Shown: positions 2,875 to 35,930, counted from the first letter of the stretch. The stretch: 64,000 nt of DNA from an uncultured Alistipes sp. (GCA_947623965.1 CANQIF010000011.1:6775-70774), one strand, 5' to 3'. Numbers and translations: made by a program. The notes: a model not told the origin generated them from the letters alone.

Positions 2875-3495
2875 GGGCTGCGGCTTTGTGAAAGCCGCAA
2901 ATTCAAAATTCAAAATTCAAGATTCAAAATTCAGAATTAAAATGGATTCCCCGAGCGAGCCTGGCTGTATGTTCCGGTTCGGGACGCAGCCTGCGGGGCA
3001 CACGCAGATTCGGAAACGAACCGAAGCTCGGGGCGCAGCTTGCGAAGGAACGCACAAGCGGACGCGAGTAGCGGGCCTTCGCGCGGCGAAGCTGCGGCCC
3101 GCTGCGCCCTTTCGGGCGCAATTCAAAATTCAATATTCAAAATTAAAAGAGGTTTTCGGGCACGCTTGGGCATGCATTTCAACTCGGGCTGCAGCCTGCG
3201 GAGGTCGCGCACGACTGCAAGGAGTTGCGGGCCTCCGCCGCTGGGAGGCTGCGGCCCGCCGATCCCTGCGGGATCGATTTTGCTTGCGGGCAGCACGTGG
3301 CATTGTTTCGGTTCGTCAGGACGGCAGCCCGCAGCTGCCGATTTTCGCCGAGATATTTTACAGCAAACTCGACTGCACAACAGTCGGCAGCCCTCCGCCC
3401 GGGGCGGCTGCGGGCTGCCGGTCGCTGCGCGACCGAGTTTTTCAGCTGTCACTTCCACTACAACCAGCGGCTGCGGTCCGCCGATCGCTCCATGA
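2875..3495. repeat. Mosaic GC-rich palindromic repeat cluster A
   Basis: Contains TTCGGGACGCAGCCTGCGG, GCGGGCCTCCGCCGCTGGGAGGCTGCGGCCCGC, GGCAGCCCTCCGCCCGGGGCGGCTGCGGGCTGCC, small hairpins (GCGCCC-TTTC-GGGCGC, GATCCC-TGC-GGGATC) and ATTCAA octamer tracts at about 2899-2945 and 3119-3160. Fills the gap between the convergent hydrolase and response regulator genes. Confidence 0.85.
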
Positions 3496-3499
3496 TTGA

Positions 3500-4186
3500 T
3501 TATTTTTCGTACATGTATCCCACCCCCTTGACCGTGAGGATGTGCCGTTCGCCGATCTTCTGCCGCAGTTTGCGGATGTGGACGTCGATCGTGCGGTCCC
3601 CGACGACCACTTCGCGGCCCCAGATCTTGGCGTAGATCTCTTCGCGCGGGATCAGCTCCCCGGGGCGTTCGCAGAGCAGTTCGAGCAGCGCGAACTCCTT
3701 GCGCGGCAGCTTGACCGCCTCGCCGCCGCGGATCACCGTGTGGCGGGCGCGGTCGATCATGATCGTGTCGCCCGACGTCCCGGTCTCCTCGCCGCCGGCC
3801 GCCGGTGCGGCGATCTCGATGCGCTTGAGCATCGCCTGCAAACGGCTGACAAGCAGCTTCATCTTGATTGGCTTGGTCAGGTAGTCGTCGGCGCCGGCAT
3901 CGAACCCCGTCAACTGCTGCTCCTCCTCGCCGAGGGCCGACAGAAAGACGATCATCGTATCCTTGAGCAGCGGATCGCGGCGAATGGCGCGGCAGGTCTG
4001 CTCACCGTCCATGACGGGCATCAAGCGGTCGAGCAGGATCAGGTGGGGGCGGAATTCGGCGGCAATACGCAGCGCCTCGGCGCCGTTCGGCGCCGTGCGG
4101 ACTTCGTACCCCTCGCGCACGAGGTTGTAGCGGATGAATTCCAGAATGTCGATCTCGTCATCGACCAGAAGAATGCGGTGATTCAT
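3500..4186 (-). CDS. OmpR/PhoB-type two-component response regulator
   Basis: Receiver domain MNHRILLVDDE...LLDRLMPVMDG...TKP plus a winged-helix C-terminus (LPRKEFALLELL...IDVHIRKLRQKI...TVKGVGY). Start CAT at 4184-4186. Confidence 0.85.
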   Translation of the reverse strand: MNHRILLVDDEIDILEFIRYNLVREGYEVRTAPNGAEALRIAAEFRPHLILLDRLMPVMDGEQTCRAIRRDPLLKDTMIVFLSALGEEEQQLTGFDAGADDYLTKPIKMKLLVSRLQAMLKRIEIAAPAAGGEETGTSGDTIMIDRARHTVIRGGEAVKLPRKEFALLELLCERPGELIPREEIYAKIWGREVVVGDRTIDVHIRKLRQKIGERHILTVKGVGYMYEK

Positions 4187-4295
4187 GGCAGCTGAAAAAG
4201 GGGGCGTGCGGGAGCCGTCGGGCTTTTCCTGCACGGAACTACGGCGAAGATAGCAAATTTTGGGTAAAAACCTTTCGCCGGCGTGGAAAAAACGT

Positions 4296-4303
4296 TATAT
4301 TTG
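4296..4303 (+). promoter_or_regulatory. Bacteroidota -7 box TATATTTG upstream of the DUF349 gene
   Basis: Exact TAnnTTTG match 48 nt upstream of ATG 4351. This argues against the ORF-track start at 4312. Confidence 0.5.
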
Positions 4304-4350
4304 CAAGAATTATGTGCCTCCGCGTGGGGGTACGCCAAAAAATCGTTGTG

Positions 4351-6540
4351 ATGGCTACTGAAAAACCAACCCTGTCTGCTCTGGATGAGCCCGTCAGCCC
4401 CGCTGTGGCTGAAGATGCGCAAACTACGACCGAGGCGCCCGTCGGGGTCGCCGAAACCGAACCCGTCGGAACCGAACCCGCAGCCGGAACGGTCGCGGCC
4501 GCCGTCGGGACCGTCGCACCCGGAGAGGGGACCGAACCCGCAGCGGAGCCTGCGGCCGGGAATGTAGAGCCGGGACCTGCTGCCGAACCTGCTGCCGAAT
4601 CGGCGGTCGAACCGGTCGCCGAAGCTGCCGCCGAGGTTTCCGAGGCTTCCGAGGCCGGGGCTGCCCCCGCATCCGCCGTTGAAACGGCCGTTCCGGTTGA
4701 GCCGGCGGTCACCGAGGGTGTCGAGGTCGATTTCGCCGAGGAGGATGCTGCGCTGGATGCGCAAAATGCCGGTCTGGAGTTGGGCGAGGAGCTGGCCGAG
4801 GAGGCCTCGTCGGGCGAAGCGCTCGCCGACGACGAGTTCGCCGGCAAGTCGAAGACGGAGCTGCTCGACCGCTTTGCCCGCGAGCTCGAGGAGAAGCCCG
4901 TGCCGACGCTGCGCCGTACGGTCGAGGCGCTGAAGGTCGCCTTCTACCGCATTCGCCGCGCGGAGGTCGAGGCGGCCCGCCGGGCCTGGATCGAGCAGGG
5001 TGGCGCCGAGGAGGCGTTCACGGCACCGGTCGATGAGGCCGAAGTGCGGCTCAAGGAGCTGTTCCGGGAGTACCGCCGCCGTCGCGACGCCTTCATCGCC
5101 GAGCTCGATGCCGAGAAGGAGGCCAATCTGAAGACGAAGCTGGCGATCATCGAGGAGCTCAAGGCGCTTGTCGATTCGGACGAGACGCTGAACCATACCT
5201 TCACGAAGTTCCGCGAGCTGCAGCAGCGCTGGAAGGAGACGGGGCTGGTGCCGCAGGCCAACGTGAAGGATCTGTGGGAGACCTACAATCTCCATGTGGA
5301 GAATTTCTACAACTTCATCAAGATCAACAAGGAGCTGCGCGATCTGGATCTGAAGAAGAACTATGAGCGCAAGGTGGCGCTTTGCGAGCAGGCTGAGGCG
5401 CTCGTGCTGGAGCCTTCGGTGGTCGAGGCCTTCCGCAAGCTGCAGAAGCTGCACGACGAGTGGCGCGAGACGGGCCCCGTGGCCAACGAGTTCAAGGAGA
5501 GCCTTTGGGAGCGTTTCAAGGCCGCGTCGAGCCGCATCAACAAGCAGCACCAGGAGCACTTCGAGGCGTTGAAGGCCGAGCAGCTGAAGAACCTCGAACT
5601 GAAAAACGAGCTGTGCGCCGCCGCCGAGGAGCTGGCCGCACGCCCGATGACGGCGCGCAAGGAGTGGAATCGGGCGAGCGACCGTCTGCTGGAGATTCAG
5701 AAGACTTGGAAGACGATCGGGTTCGCCCCGAAAAAGGACAATACGCGCATCTACGAGCGTTTCCGCGAGGCGTGCAACCGCTTCTTCGAGCTCAAGCGGG
5801 CCTATTATGCCGGCATGAAGGGCGAGATGGAGCAGAACCTGCAGCTCAAGAACGAGCTTTGCGAGCAGGCCGAGGCGCTCTCGCAGAGCGAGGAGTGGAA
5901 GCGGACGACCGACGAGTTGATCGCCCTGCAGGCTCGCTGGAAGGAGATCGGACCCGTGGCGCGCCGCCACTCGGATGCCGTGTGGAAGCGCTTCCGCGCT
6001 GCCTGCGACAGCTTCTTCGCACGCAAGTCGGCACACTTCGCCACGGTCGATGACGCCTACGCGCAGAACCTCGAGAAGAAACGCGCGCTGCTCGACGAGA
6101 TGGCGGCGGCCGATGTCTCCGAGGGCGGTTACGAGATGATCCGCGAGTTCCAGCGCCGCTGGGGCGAGATCGGATTCGTGCCCATCAAGCAGAAGGATGC
6201 GATCCAGAAACGTTACAAGGCGGAGGTCGACCGCCTCTTCGATACGCTGCGCGGCTCGGAGCGCGACCGCTCGATGGGCCGCTTCCGCGAGAAGCTTTCG
6301 GCGATGAAGGCGGGCGGCGAGCGGCGCATGCAGAGCGAGCGCGAACGCCTATATAATAAGGTGCGCCAGCTCGAGCAGGAGATCGCCCTGCTGGAAAACA
6401 ACATCGGCTTCTTCTCGCATTCGAAGAACGCCGAGGCGCTTGTGGCCGAGGTGCGTGCGAAGATCGATCGCGCCCGCGAACAGATGCAGGCGACGATCGA
6501 AAAGGTGAAACTGATCGATCGGCAGAACACGGAACAGTAG
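4351..6540 (+). CDS. DUF349 domain-containing protein with acidic Pro/Ala/Glu-rich N-terminus
   Basis: At least five repeats of the DUF349-type motif W(K/R)E(T/I)G.V......(L/V)W.RF..A...F, e.g. RWKETGLVPQANVKDLWETY, EWRETGPVANEFKESLWERF, RWKEIGPVARRHSDAVWKRF. Confidence 0.8.
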   Translation: MATEKPTLSALDEPVSPAVAEDAQTTTEAPVGVAETEPVGTEPAAGTVAAAVGTVAPGEGTEPAAEPAAGNVEPGPAAEPAAESAVEPVAEAAAEVSEASEAGAAPASAVETAVPVEPAVTEGVEVDFAEEDAALDAQNAGLELGEELAEEASSGEALADDEFAGKSKTELLDRFARELEEKPVPTLRRTVEALKVAFYRIRRAEVEAARRAWIEQGGAEEAFTAPVDEAEVRLKELFREYRRRRDAFIAELDAEKEANLKTKLAIIEELKALVDSDETLNHTFTKFRELQQRWKETGLVPQANVKDLWETYNLHVENFYNFIKINKELRDLDLKKNYERKVALCEQAEALVLEPSVVEAFRKLQKLHDEWRETGPVANEFKESLWERFKAASSRINKQHQEHFEALKAEQLKNLELKNELCAAAEELAARPMTARKEWNRASDRLLEIQKTWKTIGFAPKKDNTRIYERFREACNRFFELKRAYYAGMKGEMEQNLQLKNELCEQAEALSQSEEWKRTTDELIALQARWKEIGPVARRHSDAVWKRFRAACDSFFARKSAHFATVDDAYAQNLEKKRALLDEMAAADVSEGGYEMIREFQRRWGEIGFVPIKQKDAIQKRYKAEVDRLFDTLRGSERDRSMGRFREKLSAMKAGGERRMQSERERLYNKVRQLEQEIALLENNIGFFSHSKNAEALVAEVRAKIDRAREQMQATIEKVKLIDRQNTEQ

Positions 6541-25117: not shown

Positions 25118-26263
25118 TTATTGGCGCACGCCGAAACGGAAGACGCAGTGGCTCCTGTAGGTCTCGCCCGGACGCAGCACGGCCGAGGGCCAGGCGGGTT
25201 TGTTGGGCGTGTCGGGGTACTTCTGCGTTTCGAGGCAGATGCCCGTGCGCTGGCGGTAGGTGATGCCGCGCTTGCCCGTCACGGTGCCGTCGAGGAAGTT
25301 GCCCGTGTAGACCTGCACGCCCGGTTCGGAGGTGTAGACCGTCAGCTCGATGCCGCTCGCGGGCGAGTAGAGTACGGCGGCCGGCTTCGTGTCGTCGCCG
25401 GCGGTGTTCAGCACCCAGTTGTGGTCATAGCCGTTGCCGTTGCGGAGCTGCTCGAAGTCGAAGTCGGCGATCTCGGCGCCGAGCGTCTTCGGCACGCGGA
25501 AGTCCATCGGCGTCCCCTCGACGGGCAGGATCTCGCCCGTGGTCATGTAGGTCGAATCGACGGGGGTGTAGCTGTCGGCGTTGAGCTGCAGAACGTCGTT
25601 GAGGACCGTTTTCGTCGGGTCGCCGCCGAGGTTGAAATAGGAGTGGTTGGTCATGTTGATGATCGTCGGGGCGTCGGTCACGGCCTCATAGGCGATGTCG
25701 ATCGCGTTGTCGTCGGTCAGCGTGTAGGTGACCTTCGCCGTGACGGCTCCCGGGAACTGCGCGTCGCCGGCGGGCGAATGGAGCGTCAGCACCAGTACGT
25801 TGTCGGCCGTCTGCTCGGCTTCGTAGATGCGGTACTGCCAGCCGTCGGGACCGCCGTGCAGGCAGTGGCCGAAGTTGTTCTTCGGGAGGTCGTAGGTCAC
25901 GCTGTCGAGCGTGAAGCGGCCCTGGGCGATGCGGTTGGCGTAGCGGCCGATCGAGGCGCCGAAGTCGGAGGGAATGTTGCGGTAGTCCTCGATGTTGTCG
26001 AAGCCGAGGACGACATCCTGCAGGACGCCGTTGCGGTCTGGCACCATCACCGAGACGATGCGGCCGCCGAAGGAGGTGATGCAGACCTCCGTGCCGGCGG
26101 CGTTGACGAGGGTGTAGAGGTCGGTGGTGCGGTCGCCGACGACGGCCTGGAAGTCGGAGCGCAGCAGCCCCGAGCGGGTCGGCTGCTCTCCGTTGCAGCT
26201 GCAGAAGCCCGCAACGAACGCGCCTGCCGCCAGAACCGGCAGCGCGGAAAAGAGACGTTTCAT
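25118..26263 (-). CDS. galM: aldose 1-epimerase (mutarotase), secreted or lipoprotein form
   Basis: Signal peptide/lipobox (...VAGFCSC), then mutarotase motifs GGRIVSV, GFDN, NHSYFNL, CLETQ.YPD. Confidence 0.85.
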   Translation of the reverse strand: MKRLFSALPVLAAGAFVAGFCSCNGEQPTRSGLLRSDFQAVVGDRTTDLYTLVNAAGTEVCITSFGGRIVSVMVPDRNGVLQDVVLGFDNIEDYRNIPSDFGASIGRYANRIAQGRFTLDSVTYDLPKNNFGHCLHGGPDGWQYRIYEAEQTADNVLVLTLHSPAGDAQFPGAVTAKVTYTLTDDNAIDIAYEAVTDAPTIINMTNHSYFNLGGDPTKTVLNDVLQLNADSYTPVDSTYMTTGEILPVEGTPMDFRVPKTLGAEIADFDFEQLRNGNGYDHNWVLNTAGDDTKPAAVLYSPASGIELTVYTSEPGVQVYTGNFLDGTVTGKRGITYRQRTGICLETQKYPDTPNKPAWPSAVLRPGETYRSHCVFRFGVRQ

Positions 26264-26528
26264 GAGTATGGTTAGGTTTTGGTTTTCGGCTTTGTACGCG
26301 TTTCGTGCGCGTTCATTCGTTCAAATGTACGAAATTCCGGCCGAACGGCCAAATTTTTTTCGGATTTATTCCGCCCTCGGGCCTCACCGGCCCTCTTCCC
26401 GCCCTCTTTTGCGACCCCGATTTGCCTATGATGCCGGCGCGGGTTTCGGCATCGCCTGCCGGTCGCATCCGCTCCGGATGAAAAAATATTTTTTTTGGAG
26501 AAACAGTTGTAAAAATAGGATGATTGAT

Positions 26529-26536
26529 TATATTTG
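26529..26536 (+). promoter_or_regulatory. -7 box TATATTTG for the orphan two-gene operon
   Basis: Exact TAnnTTTG in the AT-rich divergent region, about 90 nt upstream of ATG 26627. Confidence 0.45.
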
Positions 26537-26559
26537 TGTTCAAAATGATTGCAAACAAT

Positions 26560-26600
26560 GCGGCCATCGTAGATAAATGCGATGCCGCCGGTCTTTTTTT
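26560..26600 (+). terminator. terminator-like hairpin plus T7 run inside the 5' leader of the orphan operon (possible attenuator)
   Basis: GCGGC(C)ATCG / CGATGCCGC stem with a 10-nt loop (TAGATAAATG) and one bulged C, then CGGTC and TTTTTTT (26594-26600). Located 27 nt before the ATG. Confidence 0.4.
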
Positions 26601-26626
26601 CGAACCAAACTTAACGATACTTTGCT

Positions 26627-28627
26627 ATGAATGCTCGTGATGTCAGAATCGATCCCTGCATTTCGGGGATGGCACAGCTGCTGTACGGCGGATTTACCTT
26701 TCCGCACGGCCGAACGACCGTGATCGCCGTGGCAGGCGGTCCGAATTGCGAAACATCCTTTTTCGGGCTGCAGCTGCTTTACCGGCTCGGCTTGCAGTTG
26801 GGCGTGACGCCGCAATACTGTTCGGCGATGCGCGACGTCTCCTTCTCGGAGGATTTGATCCTCGATATGACGATCTCTTCCTGCATCCGGCAGATGACGC
26901 AGCGGTACATCCAGAACGGCATGTCCGACGCGCTGCGGTTGGTGGATTTCTTTTTCGATGTCGATCATCTTTCGCCGCTGATCGACCTGCAGGCTCTCGG
27001 CATCGCCGATCTGAAACGGAATGCCGACGAGATGCTTTGCAAGGGGATCCTGCATTACAGCAATCGGACGAACGCCCTGCATATCCGAACGCTGAAAGGT
27101 ATCAGCGATGAGGAAAACCTGCTTTTCAGGCGGCGCTACGAAACGCTGAACGACTATTTTGCGTTCGGGGATCCCGCAGAGATCGAACGGATCAACCGAA
27201 GCCTCGACCGACAGTGCGGCCGGATCGATATCATTCCGTATACCTGTGCGGCCCAGGAACCGGACGCGTTCGGCCCGAAAGTCCTGTCGGCGGTCTCCGC
27301 CTTCGAGCCGGATCCGACGACACGGGACTACTACGGCCGGCTGCTGAAGTACATGAAGGCGCTTCGGGAGATGCCGGTCGGACGCAGCGACGCGCAGGTG
27401 GTCATTCTGGTGCTCGATGACCGGAAGCAGGTGCCGGAGCATTTGGCCGATATCGTGATCCGCATGGAGAATATCGTCTCATCGGACTATTCGATCCAGC
27501 AGCTGCGGATCGACAAGTGCGACATCCAGGGTGCCAAATTGGGCTGGCATCAATACAAGCGGCGCGATTACGGCATCGAGATCTATCCGAGCCTTCATAC
27601 TTATTTCGCCAAGCGCCGCTATCTGGAACGGGCGCTGGCCTACACCCATTCGAACGTCGTGACCGATACGTTCCAGGAATATCTGGAGCACAGCCGGAGA
27701 CATCACCACGCAACGATCCGTTACGACCACTACGATGCCCACGACCGCTATCTGGAGGCGATGTTCCCGGACGATTTCCTCGAATATACGCCTGAGGAGG
27801 TTTTCAACATGATTCTGCTCGACAGCGAACGGAACGAGGAGGTCGTGTCGGATCGGAATGCGGACGAACGCTCGTCTCGCGAGATCCGCTTCGGCGGCGG
27901 AACGGGCGAGGTGACGGGTATCATCGGCGAGCCCAATACCTTCAAACGGTTCCTTGCCTACGGCAGCATGTTCAGCACGGCGGTAAGGGACGAGCACACA
28001 ATGATCGTTACGCTGCACCAGGAGGTTCCCGTGATTTGCCGGCAGCTGCCCTGCCCGGCCTGCATCCGCAACCGCCGGAAGCGAAGCCGCTGCGAGAGCT
28101 GCCTTGAACACATCCATTTCATGAACTTCAATATCGGCTGCATCACGCCCAGCGAGTTCATCCACTATTTCGTGCAGCAGATCGACGTGCCGTTCCGGGA
28201 CGGGAAACGGGTCCGGCGGATTATTCTGGACAATCTGCAGGTCGTCGACTTCTGCTTCCCGCTGTTGAAGCAAAGCGAGCTCTTTCTTCCTGCGCTCATG
28301 ACCGTGTGCCGCGAACGCAACATTTCGCTCTATCTGTTGTGCGACAAGCACGGCGAACTGGTGGATGCCGTGCGGACGCTGGTGGACAACATCATCTGTA
28401 CGGAGCGGACCGGGGAGAAGGAATTGAAGCTCTACGTCGAACGTTTCGCGCGCTACAATCTTTCGCCCAGCAAAATCTATTGTGCCGAGATCGAACCTGT
28501 GAAAGAGCTGTTTTCGTGCCGCGAGATCTATCACCACGACGACCAGCGCACCATTCAATTCGAACTGGAGCCCGATGTGATCGAGGCGTGCCCGACGCAC
28601 ACGATGGGAGATTATTGGAACCGATAA
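26627..28627 (+). CDS. 666-aa protein with two KaiC/RecA-like domains, both with degenerate P-loops, and a Cys cluster in domain 2; family unknown
   Basis: Domain 1: RIDPCISGMAQLLYGGFTFPHGRTTVIAVAGGPNCETS (KaiC-type xGxxxLDxLLGGGxxxGxxxLIxGxPGxGKT pattern with GKT lost), Walker-B-like VVILVLDD, and distal LRIDKCDIQGAKLGWHQYKRRDYGIEIYP. Domain 2: GGGTGEVTGIIGEPNTFKR, RRIILDN, ISLYLLCDKHG, LKLYVERFARYNLSPSKIYCAEI. Cys cluster CRQLPCPACIRNRRKRSRCESC. Confidence 0.6.
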   Translation: MNARDVRIDPCISGMAQLLYGGFTFPHGRTTVIAVAGGPNCETSFFGLQLLYRLGLQLGVTPQYCSAMRDVSFSEDLILDMTISSCIRQMTQRYIQNGMSDALRLVDFFFDVDHLSPLIDLQALGIADLKRNADEMLCKGILHYSNRTNALHIRTLKGISDEENLLFRRRYETLNDYFAFGDPAEIERINRSLDRQCGRIDIIPYTCAAQEPDAFGPKVLSAVSAFEPDPTTRDYYGRLLKYMKALREMPVGRSDAQVVILVLDDRKQVPEHLADIVIRMENIVSSDYSIQQLRIDKCDIQGAKLGWHQYKRRDYGIEIYPSLHTYFAKRRYLERALAYTHSNVVTDTFQEYLEHSRRHHHATIRYDHYDAHDRYLEAMFPDDFLEYTPEEVFNMILLDSERNEEVVSDRNADERSSREIRFGGGTGEVTGIIGEPNTFKRFLAYGSMFSTAVRDEHTMIVTLHQEVPVICRQLPCPACIRNRRKRSRCESCLEHIHFMNFNIGCITPSEFIHYFVQQIDVPFRDGKRVRRIILDNLQVVDFCFPLLKQSELFLPALMTVCRERNISLYLLCDKHGELVDAVRTLVDNIICTERTGEKELKLYVERFARYNLSPSKIYCAEIEPVKELFSCREIYHHDDQRTIQFELEPDVIEACPTHTMGDYWNR

Positions 28628-28639
28628 AAGAGCAAAACG

Positions 28640-29728
28640 ATGAAAAACAAACGGAAAAATTGGTGGCAGGTGCATTGGGAAGACATCTTGGCCACGTCGG
28701 TGCCGGCGTTGATAACGCTTGCCGCCTCGATCGTGCAACTCTCGTTCGGGAGAGAGGGCGGCTCGTTCAAGTTAGACTGGACCTTGCTGAATTACGGAAT
28801 GCAGACGCTGTTCATCGTCATCACGCTCTTCGTTTTGATTCGCTGCTGGTCCAAAGTGCGGCGGGATGTGGAGCAGGAGGGGGCGATCAAACGCTACCTG
28901 CGGGTCTATTGCCTCCTGCCGGATGAGGGAGACCGCGCGCTGGCGCTCTCCTATTCGGTCGTTTCGGGAACGGTCCGGCAGTTCTTCTGGGCCTGGTCGG
29001 CCATTTGGGTGCTTTGGCTGGCCTATTATTGCGGATCGCTGATCGAGTATTCCTATTCGCTGTCTCTTTCGGAAGAGTGTCGGAAAGGGTTCTGTTATTG
29101 TTTCGGCATGCGGAACATGGCGACCTATCAGAATACCCTCAATTTCCTGAGCAGCGCCTTTCTGTATGCGATTTACCTGATTCTGAACGAGGCGACCGTA
29201 AAACCCGAGGAGCGTCACCAGACGAAGAACATCCTGCTGCACGGCTTGATTATCATAGCGGTGCTGGCGCTGTTGTTCTTCGTGCCGACCATGATCGCGC
29301 AGACGGCCTGCCCTGCGCGGTACAACGGCATCATGCTCTACGTATCGCTGTTGCTGAGCATCTTTTCGACTGTGACGTTTACGTTGATTCTGGGAAAGCT
29401 GAACAGCCCCTATCTCCAGTTCCCAGGCTGGATGATTTCGGGCCTGTACATCTATGCGGTCGTACAAGCCTATGAACCGCTCACGACGATCTATGCGTCG
29501 TATTTCGATCTCTTAATAGAAAATGATAAATTGTGCGGGTTGTCTTGTATGGCGGATTTGGTACAGAAAGTCCTGCCTTGGATCACGCTTGCCGGAAAGA
29601 TGCTGCTGATGCTGGCCCTGCTCTGGATCTCGGACGGACGCAGGCTGGTTTTCTACATCATCCACCAGAGCCTCTCGCTGACCGAAGCACCGCGCATGCA
29701 GAAACGGCTGGATCAACATCTGTCGTAA
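28640..29728 (+). CDS. 362-aa integral membrane protein (about 8 hydrophobic segments), family unknown
   Basis: Starts 12 nt after the upstream stop. Hydrophobic stretches include LATSVPALITLAASIVQLSF, MQTLFIVITLFVLIRCW, FFWAWSAIWVLWLAYYCGSL, FLSSAFLYAIYLIL, LLHGLIIIAVLALLFFVPTMI, IMLYVSLLLSIFSTVTFTLIL, WMISGLYIYAVVQAY, LPWITLAGKMLLMLALLWI. Confidence 0.6.
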   Translation: MKNKRKNWWQVHWEDILATSVPALITLAASIVQLSFGREGGSFKLDWTLLNYGMQTLFIVITLFVLIRCWSKVRRDVEQEGAIKRYLRVYCLLPDEGDRALALSYSVVSGTVRQFFWAWSAIWVLWLAYYCGSLIEYSYSLSLSEECRKGFCYCFGMRNMATYQNTLNFLSSAFLYAIYLILNEATVKPEERHQTKNILLHGLIIIAVLALLFFVPTMIAQTACPARYNGIMLYVSLLLSIFSTVTFTLILGKLNSPYLQFPGWMISGLYIYAVVQAYEPLTTIYASYFDLLIENDKLCGLSCMADLVQKVLPWITLAGKMLLMLALLWISDGRRLVFYIIHQSLSLTEAPRMQKRLDQHLS

Positions 29729-29762
29729 CTGGTGCGAATCATCCGGTTTGGTTTTATGCACT

Positions 29763-29813
29763 GCCGCCTGCCGTCGATCGTAGACGGCAGGCGGCGGGCT
29801 TTTCGGATTTTTT
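29763..29813 (+). terminator. Rho-independent terminator of the orphan operon
   Basis: 13-bp perfect stem GCCGCCTGCCGTC / GACGGCAGGCGGC with a 7-nt loop, followed by GGGCTTTTCGGATTTTTT. Sits between the operon and the convergent uvrB stop. Confidence 0.75.
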
Positions 29814-29818
29814 CCGGA

Positions 29819-32002
<2,184 letters not shown>

Positions 32003-32007
32003 GAGTG

Positions 32008-32055
32008 CAAAAGTAGCGCTTTCTCTGCAAAGGCCGCGCATCGTTTGCAAAGGTA
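32008..32055 (-). promoter_or_regulatory. two copies of AGCGCTAC(C/T)TTTGCA carrying -7 boxes (TACTTTTG, TACCTTTG) upstream of uvrB
   Basis: On the plus strand, CAAAAGTA at 32008-32015 and CAAAGGTA at 32048-32055. The proximal box ends 6 nt from the ATG, so that transcript would be near-leaderless. Confidence 0.4.
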
Positions 32056-32114
32056 GCGCTTCGTGCCCGAAAAACGAAACGTTCGAAATGAAAAAACGGG
32101 AGCGGGGACGATTC

Positions 32115-32169
32115 GGGGCTTTTGGGGTTATCGGGGTTATCGGGGTTATCGGGGCTTTTCGGGGCGGTG
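32115..32169. repeat. 9-bp tandem repeat GGGGTTATC x3 flanked by GGGGCTTTT-type units
   Basis: GGGGCTTTT GGGGTTATC GGGGTTATC GGGGTTATC GGGGCTTTTC GGGGCGGTG, read directly. Lies 113-167 nt upstream of uvrB. Confidence 0.8.
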
Positions 32170-32239
32170 CGAGAGGAAGGACGGCGGATAGAGGGTGGCG
32201 AGGTGTAGTGGAGAGTTGCAGGCGATGGAGGGGGTCGCC

Positions 32240-32836
32240 TGGAGGTGGCGGAGGACCTGCGGGACGCGAGTTGCAGGGCCTCCGCAGGCTGCGCCCCGAA
32301 TTTTGTGTGATTTTGAATCTTGAATTTTGAATTCTGAATTGCGCCCAAAGGGCGCTGCAGCCCGCAGCCGCCCCCGGGCGGAGGGCTGCTCCTCTACGTC
32401 GCAGGCCCCTCCGCTCGGCTGCAGGCTTGACTCGAGTTTGGATCGCTCCGTGGGGCCGTGCGGGTCGCAGCCTCCCGGCGGCGGAGGCCCGCAGTTCATG
32501 ACTGAACATGCGTGCGCTCCGCAGGCTGCGTCCCGAACTGGAATATAAGTCCAAGCGCATCCGAATGCAATTTTGAATCTTGAATTCTGAATCATGAATT
32601 TGCGGTTCCGGCAAGGAACCGCAGCGGGCCGCAGCCTCCGCCCGGCGGAGGCCCGCAGTTCGTATCCGAACTTGCGAGCACTCCGCAGGCTGCAGCCCGA
32701 GCATAATTTTGAATTTTGAATTTTGAATTTGCAGCTTCGCCCGGCGAAGGCCCGCTTTTCGCGTCCCGCAGGTCCGCTCGAGCGTGTCCTTCGAAAGCTG
32801 CAGCCCGAATGGGCGCTGCAGCCCGCAGACTTCGCC
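32240..32836. repeat. Mosaic GC-rich palindromic repeat cluster I
   Basis: Same modules, with TTGAAT tracts at about 32300-32345, 32565-32600 and 32700-32740, each followed by a hairpin (GCGCCC-AAA-GGGCGC, GCGGTTCC-GGCAA-GGAACCGC, GCAGCTTCGCC-CG-GCGAAGGC). Confidence 0.88.
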
Positions 32837-33054
32837 GAAGATACTTCGTCTCGGCAATGCTCAAATAAATTTGGCATTGCGCTCGACTTATTATTATCTT
32901 TGGCTTCGCCTTAGATACTCCGTCTCGGCAGAATCAAGCTGACGCTTGTTTCTGCTCTCGACTTTTCGTATCTTTGACTTCGTCGAAGATACGCCGCCTC
33001 GGCAAAATGCAAATAAATTTGCTTTTGCCCTCGGCTTATTCGTATCTTTGTAGC
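32837..33054 (+). repeat. 74-bp unit repeated three times in tandem, each copy carrying an exact TATCTTTG -7 box
   Basis: Units are about 32837-32910, 32911-32984 and 32985-33054. All start (G/T)(A/T)AGATAC...CGTCTCGGCA and end ...CTCG(A/G)CTT(A/T)T..TATCTTTG. Boxes at 32895-32902, 32969-32976 and 33043-33050 are exactly 74 bp apart, and the last is 25 nt from ATG 33076. Confidence 0.8.
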
Positions 33055-33075
33055 ATCCATTTTGCTTGTTCATTT

Positions 33076-35100
33076 ATGAAAAATCTGTTGCGTATGGCAT
33101 CCGTGCCTTTCCTTGCAATCGCCTGCAGCGCCTGCTCGGAGCAGAGCTTCGGCGAGCGGCCGTGGATCGTCGATCGGTTCGACGACATCAAAGTGATCCG
33201 TTACGAAGTCCCCGGCTTCGAAGCGCTCCCGCTCGAGCAGAAAGAGCTCGTCTACTACCTCTCCGAGGCGGCCAAGTGCGGCCGCGACATCCTCTTCGAC
33301 CAGAATTGCGCCATGAACCTTCCTGTGCGCCGCACGCTCGAAACGATCTATGCCGAGTACAAGGGCGACCGGACGACGGACGACTGGAAGGCGCTCGAAA
33401 AGTATCTGAAGAAGGTCTGGTTCGCCAACGGCATCCATCACCATTATTCGAACGACAAGTTCGTGCCTGAATTTACGGAGTCCTATTTCCTGCAGCTCTG
33501 CGAATCGATTCCCGCGGAGAAGTTCGGCGAGCTGTGCGGCATGATCGGGGAGGTGTGCCGCGCGATCTTCGATCCGGCGCTCTATCCGACGAAACTCAAC
33601 CAGCGGGCGGGCGACGACCTGCTGCTCACCTCGTCGAGCAACTATTACCGCGGCGTGACGCAGGCCGAGGCCGAGCGCTTCTACGACGCGATGGCTGCCG
33701 CCGATGCAGGCAATCCCGAGCCGGTGAGCTACGGGCTCAATTCGCAGCTGACGAAGAACGAGCGCGGCGAGCTCGTCGAGCGGACCTGGCGGCTGGACGG
33801 CATGTACGGCCCGGCGATCGAGCGGATCGTCTACTGGCTCGAGAAGGCCGAATCGGTCGCTGCCGAACCCCAGCGGTCGAACATCGCAGCGCTCGTGAAC
33901 TACTACCGCACGGGCGATCTGAAGGAGTTCGACCGGTACAACATCGGCTGGGTGCGCGATACGGTGTCGCACGTCGATTTCGTGAACGGCTTCATCGAGG
34001 ATTACGGCGATCCGCTGGGGCGCAAGGCTTCGTGGGAGGCCAACGTGAACTTCCGCGATTCGGTCGCCTGCCACCGTACGGAGGTCATCTCGGCCAACGC
34101 ACAGTGGTTCGAGGATCATTCGCCCGTCGATCCCGCTTTCCGCAAACCCGTCGTGAAAGGCGTCTCGGCGAAGGTCATCACGGTGGCGATGCTGGGCGGC
34201 GACTGCTATCCCGCCACGCCGATCGGCATCAACCTGCCGAATGCCGACTGGATCCGCAAAGAGTACGGTTCGAAGTCGGTGACGATCGACAACATCACCT
34301 ACGCCTACGACCAGGCGGCCAAGGGCAACGGCTTCAAGGAGGAGTTCGTGCTGCGGGCCGAAGACCGCGACCGCATCGAGCGTTACGGCAAGCTGGCCGA
34401 CGACCTGCATACCGACCTGCACGAGTGCCTGGGCCACGGCTCGGGACAGCTGGCGCCCGGGGTTTCGGCCGGGGCGCTGCGCAACTACTCCTCGACGCTC
34501 GAAGAGGCGCGCGCCGATCTTTTCGGTTTGTATTATATAGGTGATCCGAAGCTCGTCGAGCTGGGGCTTGTTCCCTCGTTCGAGGTGGCGAAGGCGGGGT
34601 ATGCCGATTACATTCTCAACGGCATGATGACCCAGCTGGCGCGTATCGAGCCGGGCAAGGATGTCGAGGAGGCTCACATGCGCAACCGCAAGCTGATCGC
34701 CGAGTGGTGCTATGAGCACGGCAAGGCGGAGAAGGTGATCGAATGGGTCGAGCAGGAGGGCAAACGGTATGTCGTGGTGAACGACTTCGAGCGGTTGCGC
34801 GCGCTTTTCGGGGAGATGTTGCGTGAGGTGCAGCGGATCAAGTCCGAGGGCGACTACGAGGCGGGCAAGGCGCTCGTCGAACGGTATGCCGTGAAGGTCG
34901 ATCCCGAGCTGCACCGCGAGGTGCTCGACCGCTATGCGGCGCTGCATATCGAACCTTACGGCGGCTTCGTCAATCCCGAATACGAGCCGGTGATCGCGGA
35001 CGGACGCATCGTGGATGTGAAGATCTCCTATCCGGCGGACTTCGCTGCGCAGATGATGTGCTACTCGACGGATTATTCGTTCCTGCCGAATCGGAATTGA
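33076..35100 (+). CDS. peptidase family M49 (dipeptidyl-peptidase III-like) lipoprotein
   Basis: Lipobox MKNLLRMASVPFLAIAC. Zinc motifs HECLGH and EEARAD match the M49 HExxGH / EExRAE pattern. Confidence 0.85.
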   Translation: MKNLLRMASVPFLAIACSACSEQSFGERPWIVDRFDDIKVIRYEVPGFEALPLEQKELVYYLSEAAKCGRDILFDQNCAMNLPVRRTLETIYAEYKGDRTTDDWKALEKYLKKVWFANGIHHHYSNDKFVPEFTESYFLQLCESIPAEKFGELCGMIGEVCRAIFDPALYPTKLNQRAGDDLLLTSSSNYYRGVTQAEAERFYDAMAAADAGNPEPVSYGLNSQLTKNERGELVERTWRLDGMYGPAIERIVYWLEKAESVAAEPQRSNIAALVNYYRTGDLKEFDRYNIGWVRDTVSHVDFVNGFIEDYGDPLGRKASWEANVNFRDSVACHRTEVISANAQWFEDHSPVDPAFRKPVVKGVSAKVITVAMLGGDCYPATPIGINLPNADWIRKEYGSKSVTIDNITYAYDQAAKGNGFKEEFVLRAEDRDRIERYGKLADDLHTDLHECLGHGSGQLAPGVSAGALRNYSSTLEEARADLFGLYYIGDPKLVELGLVPSFEVAKAGYADYILNGMMTQLARIEPGKDVEEAHMRNRKLIAEWCYEHGKAEKVIEWVEQEGKRYVVVNDFERLRALFGEMLREVQRIKSEGDYEAGKALVERYAVKVDPELHREVLDRYAALHIEPYGGFVNPEYEPVIADGRIVDVKISYPADFAAQMMCYSTDYSFLPNRN

Positions 35101-35177: not shown

Positions 35178-35930
35178 GCTGGCTGCGGCCGCTGATTGAT
35201 GCCGAGGCGATCATGTGTAAATTCGGTCGCGCAGCGACCGGCAGCCCGCAGCCGCTGGTTTGGTGGAAGGGGTTTTGCTGTAAGCTCGACGTTGCAGACG
35301 GCGGCAGCCCGCAACCGTCCCCGGGCGGAGGACTGCTCCTTTGTGCAGCAGGCCTGTCCGCTCGGCTGCGGTTTTTTTGCAAGGAATCAATCGCATAGCG
35401 ATTGGCGGGCCGCAACCTGGGGGCGGCGGAGGCCCGCAACTCCTTATAGTCGTGCGCGCCTCCGCAGGCTGCGTCCCGAATCCGATTAGTTAAGCACATT
35501 TAATTTTGAATCTTGAATTTTGAATTCTGAATTTGCGCCCGAATGGGCGCGGCAGCCCGCAGCCGCCCCCGGGCGGAGGGCTGCTCCTTTACGTCGCCAC
35601 GCCCATCCGCTCGGCTGCGGGCTTCTTCCGCATTTGGGAACGGTCCGATAGGACCGTGCGGGCCGCAGCTTCGCCGCGCGAAGGCCCGCATCTCGCGTCC
35701 GCATGTCCGCTCGTGCGTGCGCTTCGCAAGCTGCGTCCCGAACCCATAGGAAACGCGCCTAATTTTGAATCTTGAATTTTGAATGATGAATTTGCGCCAG
35801 AATGGGCGCCGCAGCCCGCAGCCGCCCCCTGGCGGAGGGCTGCTCCTTTATGTCGCAAGCCCGTCCGCTCGGCTGCGAGCTGGTCCCGTGTTTGGGAACG
35901 GTCCGATAGGACCGTGCGGGCCGCAGCCCT
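35178..35930. repeat. Mosaic GC-rich palindromic repeat cluster J
   Basis: GGTCGC-GCA-GCGACC+GGCAGCCCGCAGCC..., TTGAAT tracts at about 35490-35535 and 35758-35795 followed by GCGCCC-GAAT-GGGCGC, and GGTCC-GATA-GGACC hairpins. Confidence 0.88.

Follow-up and report, generated by a model that had tools for sequence, protein, structure and literature searches.

What might a KaiC-like protein with deviant nucleotide-binding motifs be doing in one operon with a polytopic membrane protein? The question is raised by two adjacent genes in a stretch of 64,000 nucleotides (nt) from an uncultured Alistipes sp. (GCA_947623965.1, CANQIF010000011.1:6775-70774), hereafter the window, i.e. the whole of the DNA that was analysed. 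They encode a tandem KaiC-like protein (protein 1) and a protein with eight predicted transmembrane (TM) helices (protein 2). KaiC has so far been known for clocks and archaeal signalling, and a first-pass annotation made from the sequence, which recognized no characterized system in the pair, hesitated between a membrane-coupled signalling switch and an anti-phage or abortive module. Comparative analysis now lends independent support to the latter and none to a pure signalling switch. On this comparative evidence, the operon is probably a conflict module, most likely of the anti-phage abortive-infection type, that combines a KaiC-like oligomeric switch with swappable effectors. This reading is based on the obligatory pairing of the two genes, the exchange of the membrane protein for SIR2, the fusion of related TM modules to TIR, EAD11 and HNH domains, the presence of prophage and defence genes in the neighbourhood and a patchy distribution.

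An obligatory pair with an exchangeable partner

The KaiC-like family to which protein 1 belongs is a small one. From 5.8 billion proteins it yields 44 clusters at 90% identity, all of them unnamed or 'hypothetical', and from 185,579 species-representative genomes it yields 19 loci, all of them in Bacteroidales (Prevotella, Xylanibacter, Paraprevotella, Bacteroides, Paludibacter, Rikenellaceae and Odoribacter). With the addition of 80 metagenomic loci, 103 loci were classified in all, and those that carry an organism name are again all Bacteroidales. The 8-TM gene lies directly downstream of the KaiC-like gene in 67 of the 103, at a distance of -17 to +27 nt except in one locus (L093) where the called start is 157 nt away. 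In 34 others its place is taken by a SIR2_2 gene directly upstream, which overlaps the KaiC-like gene by 4-16 nt in most cases (with gaps of up to +28 nt in a few), and three of these loci have a second SIR2 gene downstream. The remaining two are cut by contig ends, and the partner rule is thus without exception. The co-occurrence that the first-pass annotation had proposed to check is therefore borne out, with SIR2 as the only substitute.

After dereplication at 90% identity, 34 membrane-type and 9 SIR2-type lineages were left. In a neighbour-joining tree, midpoint-rooted and without bootstrap support, the SIR2-type lineages form one clade that is sister to a membrane-type subclade, and the invariant C-domain motifs described below are common to SIR2-linked and membrane-linked proteins. 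Proteins 1 and 2 have diverged together (Mantel r = 0.745, a value reached in 0 of 2000 permutations). GAG, TYN[YF]D and HxHG are all preserved in the SIR2 partners, i.e. their catalytic motifs are intact, and one of these partners matches the PADLOC models for the SIR2 domains of ThsA, LmuA and Dsr1. SIR2 genes are found on both sides of the KaiC-like gene in L013 (3-4542), L015 (3-3664) and L064; in L013, the downstream paralog (3178-4542) is far closer to the SIR2 domains of ThsA, LmuA and Dsr1 than the upstream one.

Disrupted genes were also seen at individual loci. In L130 (12065-14664), a Transposase_mut insertion interrupts the membrane gene, of which the sibling contigs L129 and L131 have intact copies. 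The isolate of B. timonensis (L012, 11967-13125) has a frameshift in this gene, unlike the metagenomic relatives L071, L074 and L075, where it is intact. A split KaiC-like gene is found in L008 (126-2178).

A KaiC-like fold with non-canonical motifs

Structural prediction supports the identification of protein 1 as a tandem KaiC-like protein. Its AlphaFold model (pLDDT 85.2, pTM 0.85) consists of an N-domain (approximately aa 1-324), a helical linker (approximately aa 325-425) and a C-domain (approximately aa 426-666), and Foldseek matched it to full-length two-domain KaiC at E 5e-19 and probability 1.0 over ~670 aligned columns, the top 50 matches all being full-length KaiC. The two KaiC-style domains that had been read from the sequence are thereby confirmed by fold. 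Sequence similarity is much more tenuous: the Pfam KaiC model (PF06745) gave 22.1 bits, under its gathering cutoff of 26.6, and covers aa 266-322 only, with a precomputed match present in some homologs. In a family profile, the N-terminal block aligns with the N-terminus of KaiC CI (E 2e-4).

What is shared with KaiC is therefore the pair of RecA-fold domains in tandem on each chain, the N-terminal block 'KIxTxIxGLDxLLxGG...G-P-loop...Q' aligning to CI, and a hairpin motif at the end of the domain ('GxHxY...GIEVYP') aligning to the CI C-terminus. What differs is the non-canonical Walker A motifs, the helical linker of ~100 aa, and a Cys3His cluster with variable Cys-rich insertions. The genetic context differs too, since the window operon has no kaiA or kaiB nearby and the partner is obligatorily a membrane protein or SIR2; none of the annotated locus flanks was seen to contain kaiA or kaiB, the 8-TM gene and SIR2 being the only constant partners.

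The canonical Walker A motif GxxxxGK[ST] is met in neither domain (Table 1). In the N-domain, the lysine is lost from a stretch whose KaiC CI counterpart reads GTSGTGKT in the profile alignment, and relatives have GxxxT[ED][KR]T if membrane-linked and GxxGxxK if SIR2-linked. In the C-domain, the lysine is kept while the Gly and Ser/Thr are replaced, and alignments show G434, N437 and K440 to be invariant, and R441 nearly so, in both branches of the family. K440 falls on the position of the N-domain Walker A lysine in hhalign, weakly (E 0.08) and over the P-loop only. Because this alignment of the N- and C-domains is not significant, the case for an internal duplication is that of the predicted fold, and the C-domain profile on its own found no meaningful match among PDB sequences. 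The hhhhDD strand conserved in the family reads DN in the window protein. The invariant Cys/His cluster, at the position of which relatives carry Cys-rich insertions, is presumed to be a Zn-binding knuckle.

The N-tier of protein 1 thus looks decayed, and the C-tier appears to retain a conserved binding site of non-canonical type. This predicted site is likelier to be functional than dead, since it is invariant and retains its lysine. The description of the protein as 'double-dead' in the first-pass annotation consequently stands for the N-domain, with its GGPNCETS, but not for the C-domain, with its invariant GxxNxxKR.

The membrane protein and a wider TM module

The AlphaFold model of protein 2 (pLDDT 81.4, pTM 0.82) is all-helical with eight TM-length helices, in agreement with the roughly eight hydrophobic segments and the absence of any recognizable motif noted at first reading. 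No match was found in Pfam, NCBIfam or PADLOC, and none by fold when Foldseek was run against the PDB (best E 0.07, TM-score at most 0.35). A resemblance to G-protein-coupled receptors was considered and rejected, the matches to these receptors and to TTYH being noise (E >=0.07, TM-score <=0.35). According to the positive-inside rule, both termini and the GKLNS and GRRLxFY segments are predicted to be cytoplasmic; the GKLNS loop is invariant in the family.

When 1.84 billion representatives were searched exhaustively with a profile, 68 close family members were retrieved at E < 1e-30, along with a much wider set of remote relatives matching over the TM core only, i.e. 258 representative clusters at E < 1e-10 and 838 at E < 1e-3. 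These retain QFxxxWxxxWxxW..Y followed by G[KR]L[ND]S, LYxYAxIQ and GRLxFY, and the wider module is without a Pfam model. Among 68 remote relatives scanned for domain fusions, three have an N-terminal TIR domain, three EAD11 and one HNH. Most TM-module relatives are standalone proteins of 300-450 aa, some being fused to TIR, EAD11, HNH or PDZ domains.

EADs serve as adaptors through which effectors are brought to NTPase-centred conflict systems (Kaur, Burroughs, Iyer and Aravind 2020, PMC7159879), and the N-terminal EAD11 or TIR domains borne by remote relatives would place the TM module in the effector repertoire of NTP-dependent conflict systems. The window protein differs in having no EAD, and a KaiC-like core is not among the NTPases of that study, in which 'KaiC' and 'RecA' have zero occurrences (PMC7159879). 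If its role is confirmed, the motif series G[KR]L[ND]S...LYxYAxIQ...GRLxFY would define a new multi-TM effector module, and a widespread one given the 258 clusters found at the stricter threshold.

Genomic neighbourhoods

The partner gene is the only constant feature around the module, and the neighbourhood differs at every locus. A prophage-like element (L128, 1-21983) carries as cargo a pair 39-41% identical to that of the window. This pair has the genes for both terminase subunits (small and large), the portal and the capsid on one flank, a PcfJ/YopX/PcfK/VRR_NUC/ParB module on the other flank, and an RmlD-like epimerase gene beside it. In three sibling contigs (L129-131), in one strain of which the TM gene is transposase-split, the pair adjoins a PtuA-like AAA_15/AAA_21 ATPase. 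In a Rikenellaceae metagenome-assembled genome (MAG), a TIR-NLR gene (TIR + TPR; L018:6130-8610; PADLOC TIR-NLR, E 8e-152) lies directly upstream of a SIR2/KaiC-like pair, and RmlA and RmlB genes lie downstream of it. One copy (L039) is found in a region resembling a conjugative transposon, and other neighbours include a DDE transposase, a Fic/Bro-N protein, DUF3825 and a PLD nuclease. Among 140 flanking genes, PADLOC recognized PtuA, AbiU, a CBASS-type phospholipase, STK_OB, LmuA and several PDC candidates.

Relatives lie inside capsular polysaccharide (CPS) operons at approximately 30-50% of loci, the flanking families comprising GT1, RmlA-like proteins, epimerases, flippases, GlmS, UGDH and ManC. 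The module, whether of the membrane type or of the SIR2 type, often lies in or next to such operons; in L003, L007, L014, L034, L039, L082 and L127, it is preceded or followed, on the same strand, by genes for flippase, glycosyltransferase, RmlA/B, UGDH, ManC and GlmS. The last of these loci, GenBank MT835535.1 ('UNVERIFIED: Bacteriophage sp.'), was considered as an instance of carriage by a phage and rejected because it is 100% identical to gut bacterial contigs. The identity, to human-gut contigs of up to 423 kb, extends over at least 14 kb, and the record holds a polysaccharide-biosynthesis operon followed by a SIR2/KaiC-like pair; mis-binning of a bacterial CPS fragment is the almost certain explanation.

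A probable conflict module and its alternatives

In a conflict module of the kind proposed, protein 1 would act as sensor and switch, perceiving an infection cue by means of what is probably a two-tier ring of KaiC-like RecA-fold domains. Its N-tier would be, after decay, a structural pseudo-NTPase, and its C-tier would provide an invariant non-canonical nucleotide- or phosphate-binding site (GxxNxxKR plus hhhhDD) together with the Cys3His knuckle. Protein 2 would be an 8-TM inner-membrane effector activated by its KaiC-like partner, which it would contact presumably via the conserved cytoplasmic loops GKLNS and GRRLxFY. Once activated, it might compromise the integrity or energization of the membrane and so bring about abortive infection, from which phage protection would result. 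In the sister clade, the same KaiC-like core would drive a SIR2 NADase and hence depletion of NAD+.

The architecture of a ring NTPase with swappable effectors is already known; what is new is the KaiC-like chassis and the 8-TM module. That no characterized system matches, as the first-pass annotation had supposed, agrees with the blank searches of PADLOC, Pfam and NCBIfam, and the papers that could be searched contained neither a description of a KaiC-like protein combined with SIR2 or a TM effector nor an experiment showing phage protection by such a combination. None of the PADLOC models matched four SIR2-linked KaiC-like proteins at E up to 0.01. If the reading is confirmed, a KaiC-type protein would join the short list of prokaryotic immune NTPase chassis. 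The bacteria concerned are gut Bacteroidales (Alistipes, Bacteroides, Prevotella), where phage-host dynamics shape the microbiome and in which, to our knowledge, few defence systems have been natively validated.

Several observations nevertheless weigh against a defence function. Strong defence matches are modest in number, approximately 10 among the 140 flanking genes, and this is a raw count over two genes on either side without a background. Among PADLOC-DB v2.0.0 models, none matched protein 2 and only CARF3 matched protein 1, at E 0.038, and the KaiC-like family was not found in IMG/VR viral contigs or PLSDB plasmids. The window protein has lost its N-tier lysine and has DN in Walker B, which makes ATP-driven switching uncertain in its case, and the TM module of the TIR-TM fusions could be a sensor or an anchor and not an effector. 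The G+C content at third codon positions (GC3) of the pair is only ~1.2 standard deviations below the window mean, so that any acquisition must be old. Finally, the commonest neighbours are genes for capsule or polysaccharide biosynthesis, at least one being present in 23 of the 43 dereplicated loci and at least two in 13, and in B. timonensis the pair comes directly after UpxY and UpxZ (L012:8609-13125). Such a neighbourhood could point to an envelope-related function.

The pair might indeed be an accessory component or regulator of CPS production or export, serving as a checkpoint or membrane platform. It would then be understandable that polysaccharide genes dominate the flanks, standing on both sides of the module in 7 of the 43 loci, that the module is usually on the same strand as the CPS genes, and that in X. 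rodentium (L016:7620-12106) an UpxY-like gene precedes the SIR2 version much as UpxY and UpxZ precede the B. timonensis pair. We consider this unlikely all the same. The window copy and many others (L001, L002, L010, L036, L128 and L129) lie outside CPS loci, and within such loci the place of the module varies (head, middle, end or divergent). The family is too rare (19 of 185,579 species) for a general CPS component, and neither a SIR2 NADase partner nor TIR, EAD11 and HNH fusions have a rationale in polysaccharide synthesis. CPS loci are variable regions that are frequently exchanged and, for that reason, could merely collect cargo. The SIR2 exchange and the fusions are also awkward for the idea of a non-immune signalling switch, in which a KaiC-like scaffold gates or regulates a membrane channel or transporter according to metabolic or envelope state. 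KaiC-like signal-transduction hubs have been proposed for Archaea, and a KaiC fold with decayed catalytic motifs is typical of a regulatory pseudo-enzyme. The tight coupling to a polytopic membrane protein, the conserved and possibly ligand-binding C-domain site and the fact that the window pair contains neither a nuclease nor any other overtly toxic domain would all fit. However, the annotated flanks show no constant link to a sensor or output domain, a transcription factor or a kinase, protein 2 is unlike any transporter or channel fold in the PDB, and a patchy distribution with a different neighbourhood at each locus and carriage on a prophage is not what such a switch would lead one to expect, which makes it quite improbable.

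Least probable of all, and in our view very much so, is a selfish addiction module in which the TM protein is a toxin, the KaiC-like protein its inhibitor and post-segregational killing the outcome, with no dedicated role in defence. The tightly coupled pair is mobile among unrelated loci, one of them on a prophage, and the membrane gene is inactivated while the KaiC-like gene is intact in L012 (frameshift) and L130 (transposase), which is the pattern expected if the TM protein is toxic. Yet the 666-aa 'antitoxin' would be very large, it carries invariant, enzymatic-looking sites, and the plasmids of PLSDB, as said, do not carry the family. This explanation also overlaps heavily with that of a conflict module, the border between toxin-antitoxin and abortive-infection systems being blurred.

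The conflict-module reading may be extended, more tentatively, to the capsule. The location of many copies inside capsule operons suggests that the module is co-expressed with phase-variable capsules and, by the same token, a link between phase-variable capsule expression and intracellular defence. It is possible, if on balance doubtful, that the family represents an unrecognized immune system of Bacteroidales in which a double-tier KaiC-like ring senses infection by way of its decayed N-tier and its non-canonical C-tier site and acts through interchangeable effectors, either a new membrane-disrupting 8-TM protein or a SIR2 NADase, often from within UpxY-controlled capsule operons, so that immunity is co-expressed with capsule type. 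If true, carriage in capsule operons would link receptor-level and intracellular phage defence.

Comparison with other systems

In SIR2-HerA and DUF4297-HerA (Nezha), a ring-forming RecA-fold NTPase is coupled to a swappable effector, a SIR2 NADase being one option. The present family resembles them in its NTPase-like core with exchangeable effectors that include SIR2. It differs in that the core is KaiC-like and not HerA, in that the other effector option is an 8-TM protein instead of a nuclease, in its apparent restriction to Bacteroidales and, as far as SIR2-HerA is concerned, in that SIR2 is the partner in the sister clade only and not in the window.

Transmembrane effectors are also found in signalling-based defence, namely in CBASS of the Cap15 type, in Pycsar (PycTM) and in type III CRISPR systems (CARF/SAVED-TM). 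The likeness consists in a membrane protein filling the slot that soluble NADases (SIR2, TIR) fill in sister systems and in the presumed outcome, membrane failure and abortive infection. Protein 2, however, has no sequence or fold similarity to these effectors, possesses eight TM helices and signature motifs of its own, and is linked to no synthase of a nucleotide second messenger and to no sensor domain. For this last reason, it would be controlled by protein-protein contact with its KaiC-like partner.

A precedent for a KaiC-like protein at a membrane platform is the archaellum protein ArlH (FlaH), which has a single KaiC-like domain with an atypical nucleotide site and acts at the polytopic membrane protein ArlJ. 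The differences are considerable, since that system is archaeal, single-domain and encoded in a large motility operon with ArlI; ArlJ is not known to be homologous to protein 2, and genes of that kind are absent from the present locus.

Accessory status of the window copy

The distribution of the pair is patchy, accessory and horizontally moving, and the window copy is a case in point. It was found in 18 of 18 contigs with an identical galM, at the same place in every conspecific contig examined. Window UvrB is 82-87% identical to proteins of Alistipes sp. MAGs, and uvrB has no such pair beside it in any of the four nearest Alistipes relatives, the gene on its 3' side being a different one in each. 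A clean empty site with galM directly next to uvrB, for which the first-pass annotation had proposed to look, was not seen, as these four relatives have no galM-uvrB junction at all; a clear-cut presence/absence polymorphism may still exist. Since what follows uvrB on its 3' side varies among all the close relatives examined, this junction is not conserved, and the view that the operon sits between two conserved housekeeping blocks is not supported. The low G+C content, together with a GC3 that is partly ameliorated, points to acquisition long ago from a Bacteroidales donor of lower G+C content. No CPS genes were found near the window copy in the 24 kb examined, and it does not lie in an operon headed by UpxY/UpxZ.

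Organization and composition of the locus

The operon was rightly described as a self-contained unit, with two open reading frames (ORFs) on the same strand separated by 12 nt, a -7 box of its own and a terminator (Table 1). It is bordered by galM (25118-26263, -) on one side and by the convergent uvrB (29819-32002, -) on the other, galM being the last gene of a minus-strand arabinose-utilization block (araA, araD, SSF transporter, galM).

Table 1. Coordinates of the operon and its features in the window
Feature	Position	Strand	Description	Basis
-7 promoter box	26529..26536	+	TATATTTG; fits Bacteroidetes -7 consensus TAnnTTTG	
Leader hairpin	26560-26588	+	11-bp stem (5+6 bp, one bulge); U7 at 26594-26600, 5 nt downstream	
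Gene 1	26627..28627	+	666-aa tandem KaiC-like (RecA-fold) protein	ORF call
N-domain P-loop position	26735..26758	+	aa 37-44, GGPNCETS; Walker A lysine replaced by Thr	
C-domain deviant P-loop	27926..27949	+	aa 434-441, GEPNTFKR; pattern GxxNxxKR	
Cys/His cluster	28052..28117	+	C476...C489-x2-C492...H497; invariant columns in alignments	
C-domain Walker B-like strand	28217..28240	+	aa 531-538, RRIILDNLQ in window; family consensus RIIIDDLQ	
Gene 2	28640..29728	+	362-aa polytopic membrane protein, eight predicted TM helices	ORF call
Signature loop GKLNS	29393..29407	+	aa 252-256; then LYxYAxxQ (aa 269-276) and GRRLxFY (aa 333-339)	
Intrinsic terminator	29758..29815	+	15-bp perfect G+C-rich stem (29761-29797), U-rich tail; between convergent gene 2 and uvrB	

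Of the control elements proposed earlier, the -7 box was confirmed. The -33 element is only partial (TTG at 26507-26509); the strict pattern TTTG-N17-23-TAnnTTTG found no match at the operon promoter, and a scan for sigma-70-like promoters gave TTGTAA-16-TATATT at 26507-26534. The promoter of galM and the arabinose block (26322-26353, -) has the full Bacteroidetes -33/-7 consensus, and the two promoters are divergent within an intergenic region of 363 nt. A leader hairpin is present as claimed, with a modest edge over shuffled sequences: the 82-nt leader folds at -20.4 kcal/mol (z = -2.24), 6 of 200 shuffles being as stable. It was not called by a terminator scan, and an Rfam search of the leader and the operon gave no match, which leaves its reading as a known riboswitch or attenuator unsupported; it could be an attenuator or functionless. 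The terminator is stronger than described, the supposed 13-bp stem having in fact 15 perfect pairs. It folds at -42.9 kcal/mol on the + strand (z = -4.40), and the hairpin also forms on the - strand (z = -5.6) but without a U-tract.

The G+C content of the two genes, judged by eye to be lower than that of the flanks, was computed at 0.576 for gene 1 and 0.541 for gene 2 against 0.644 +/- 0.035 in the 32 other ORFs of the window, the lowest among its credible genes, with GC3 of 0.77 and 0.75 against 0.85. The proteins had also been called rich in Cys and aromatic residues. This is true of Cys, which makes up 3.2% of protein 1 and 2.5% of protein 2 compared with 1.4% elsewhere in the window, whereas aromatic residues are abundant in protein 2 only (13.8%), at a level that is ordinary for a membrane protein and identical to that of the neighbouring SGLT membrane protein.

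The flanks of the operon are free of repeat clusters, as had been noted. They contain no tandem-repeat arrays, and a search for short-range inverted repeats (arms >=14 nt, <=60 nt apart) in 26000-33200 reported a single palindrome, inside galM, although the same search also missed the terminator stem revealed by RNA folding. Neighbouring intergenic regions (32.0-33.05 kb and 35.5-35.8 kb) do carry several tandem-repeat arrays. Arrays of the heptamer AATTTTG and the 14-mers AATTTTGAATCATG and AATTCTGAATCATG recur in several intergenic regions of the window (32705-32730, 35502-35534, 32569-32600 and 35761-35793), none of them flanking the KaiC-like operon, and are probably the 'repeat clusters' of the first-pass annotation. 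A 74-bp unit is repeated three times at 32828-33050, upstream of an M49 peptidase gene (33007-35100). At least two of its copies hold the full Bacteroidetes promoter consensus TTTG-N-TAnnTTTG (at 32870 and 33018), and the repeats would thus make up a predicted, tandemly duplicated promoter region.

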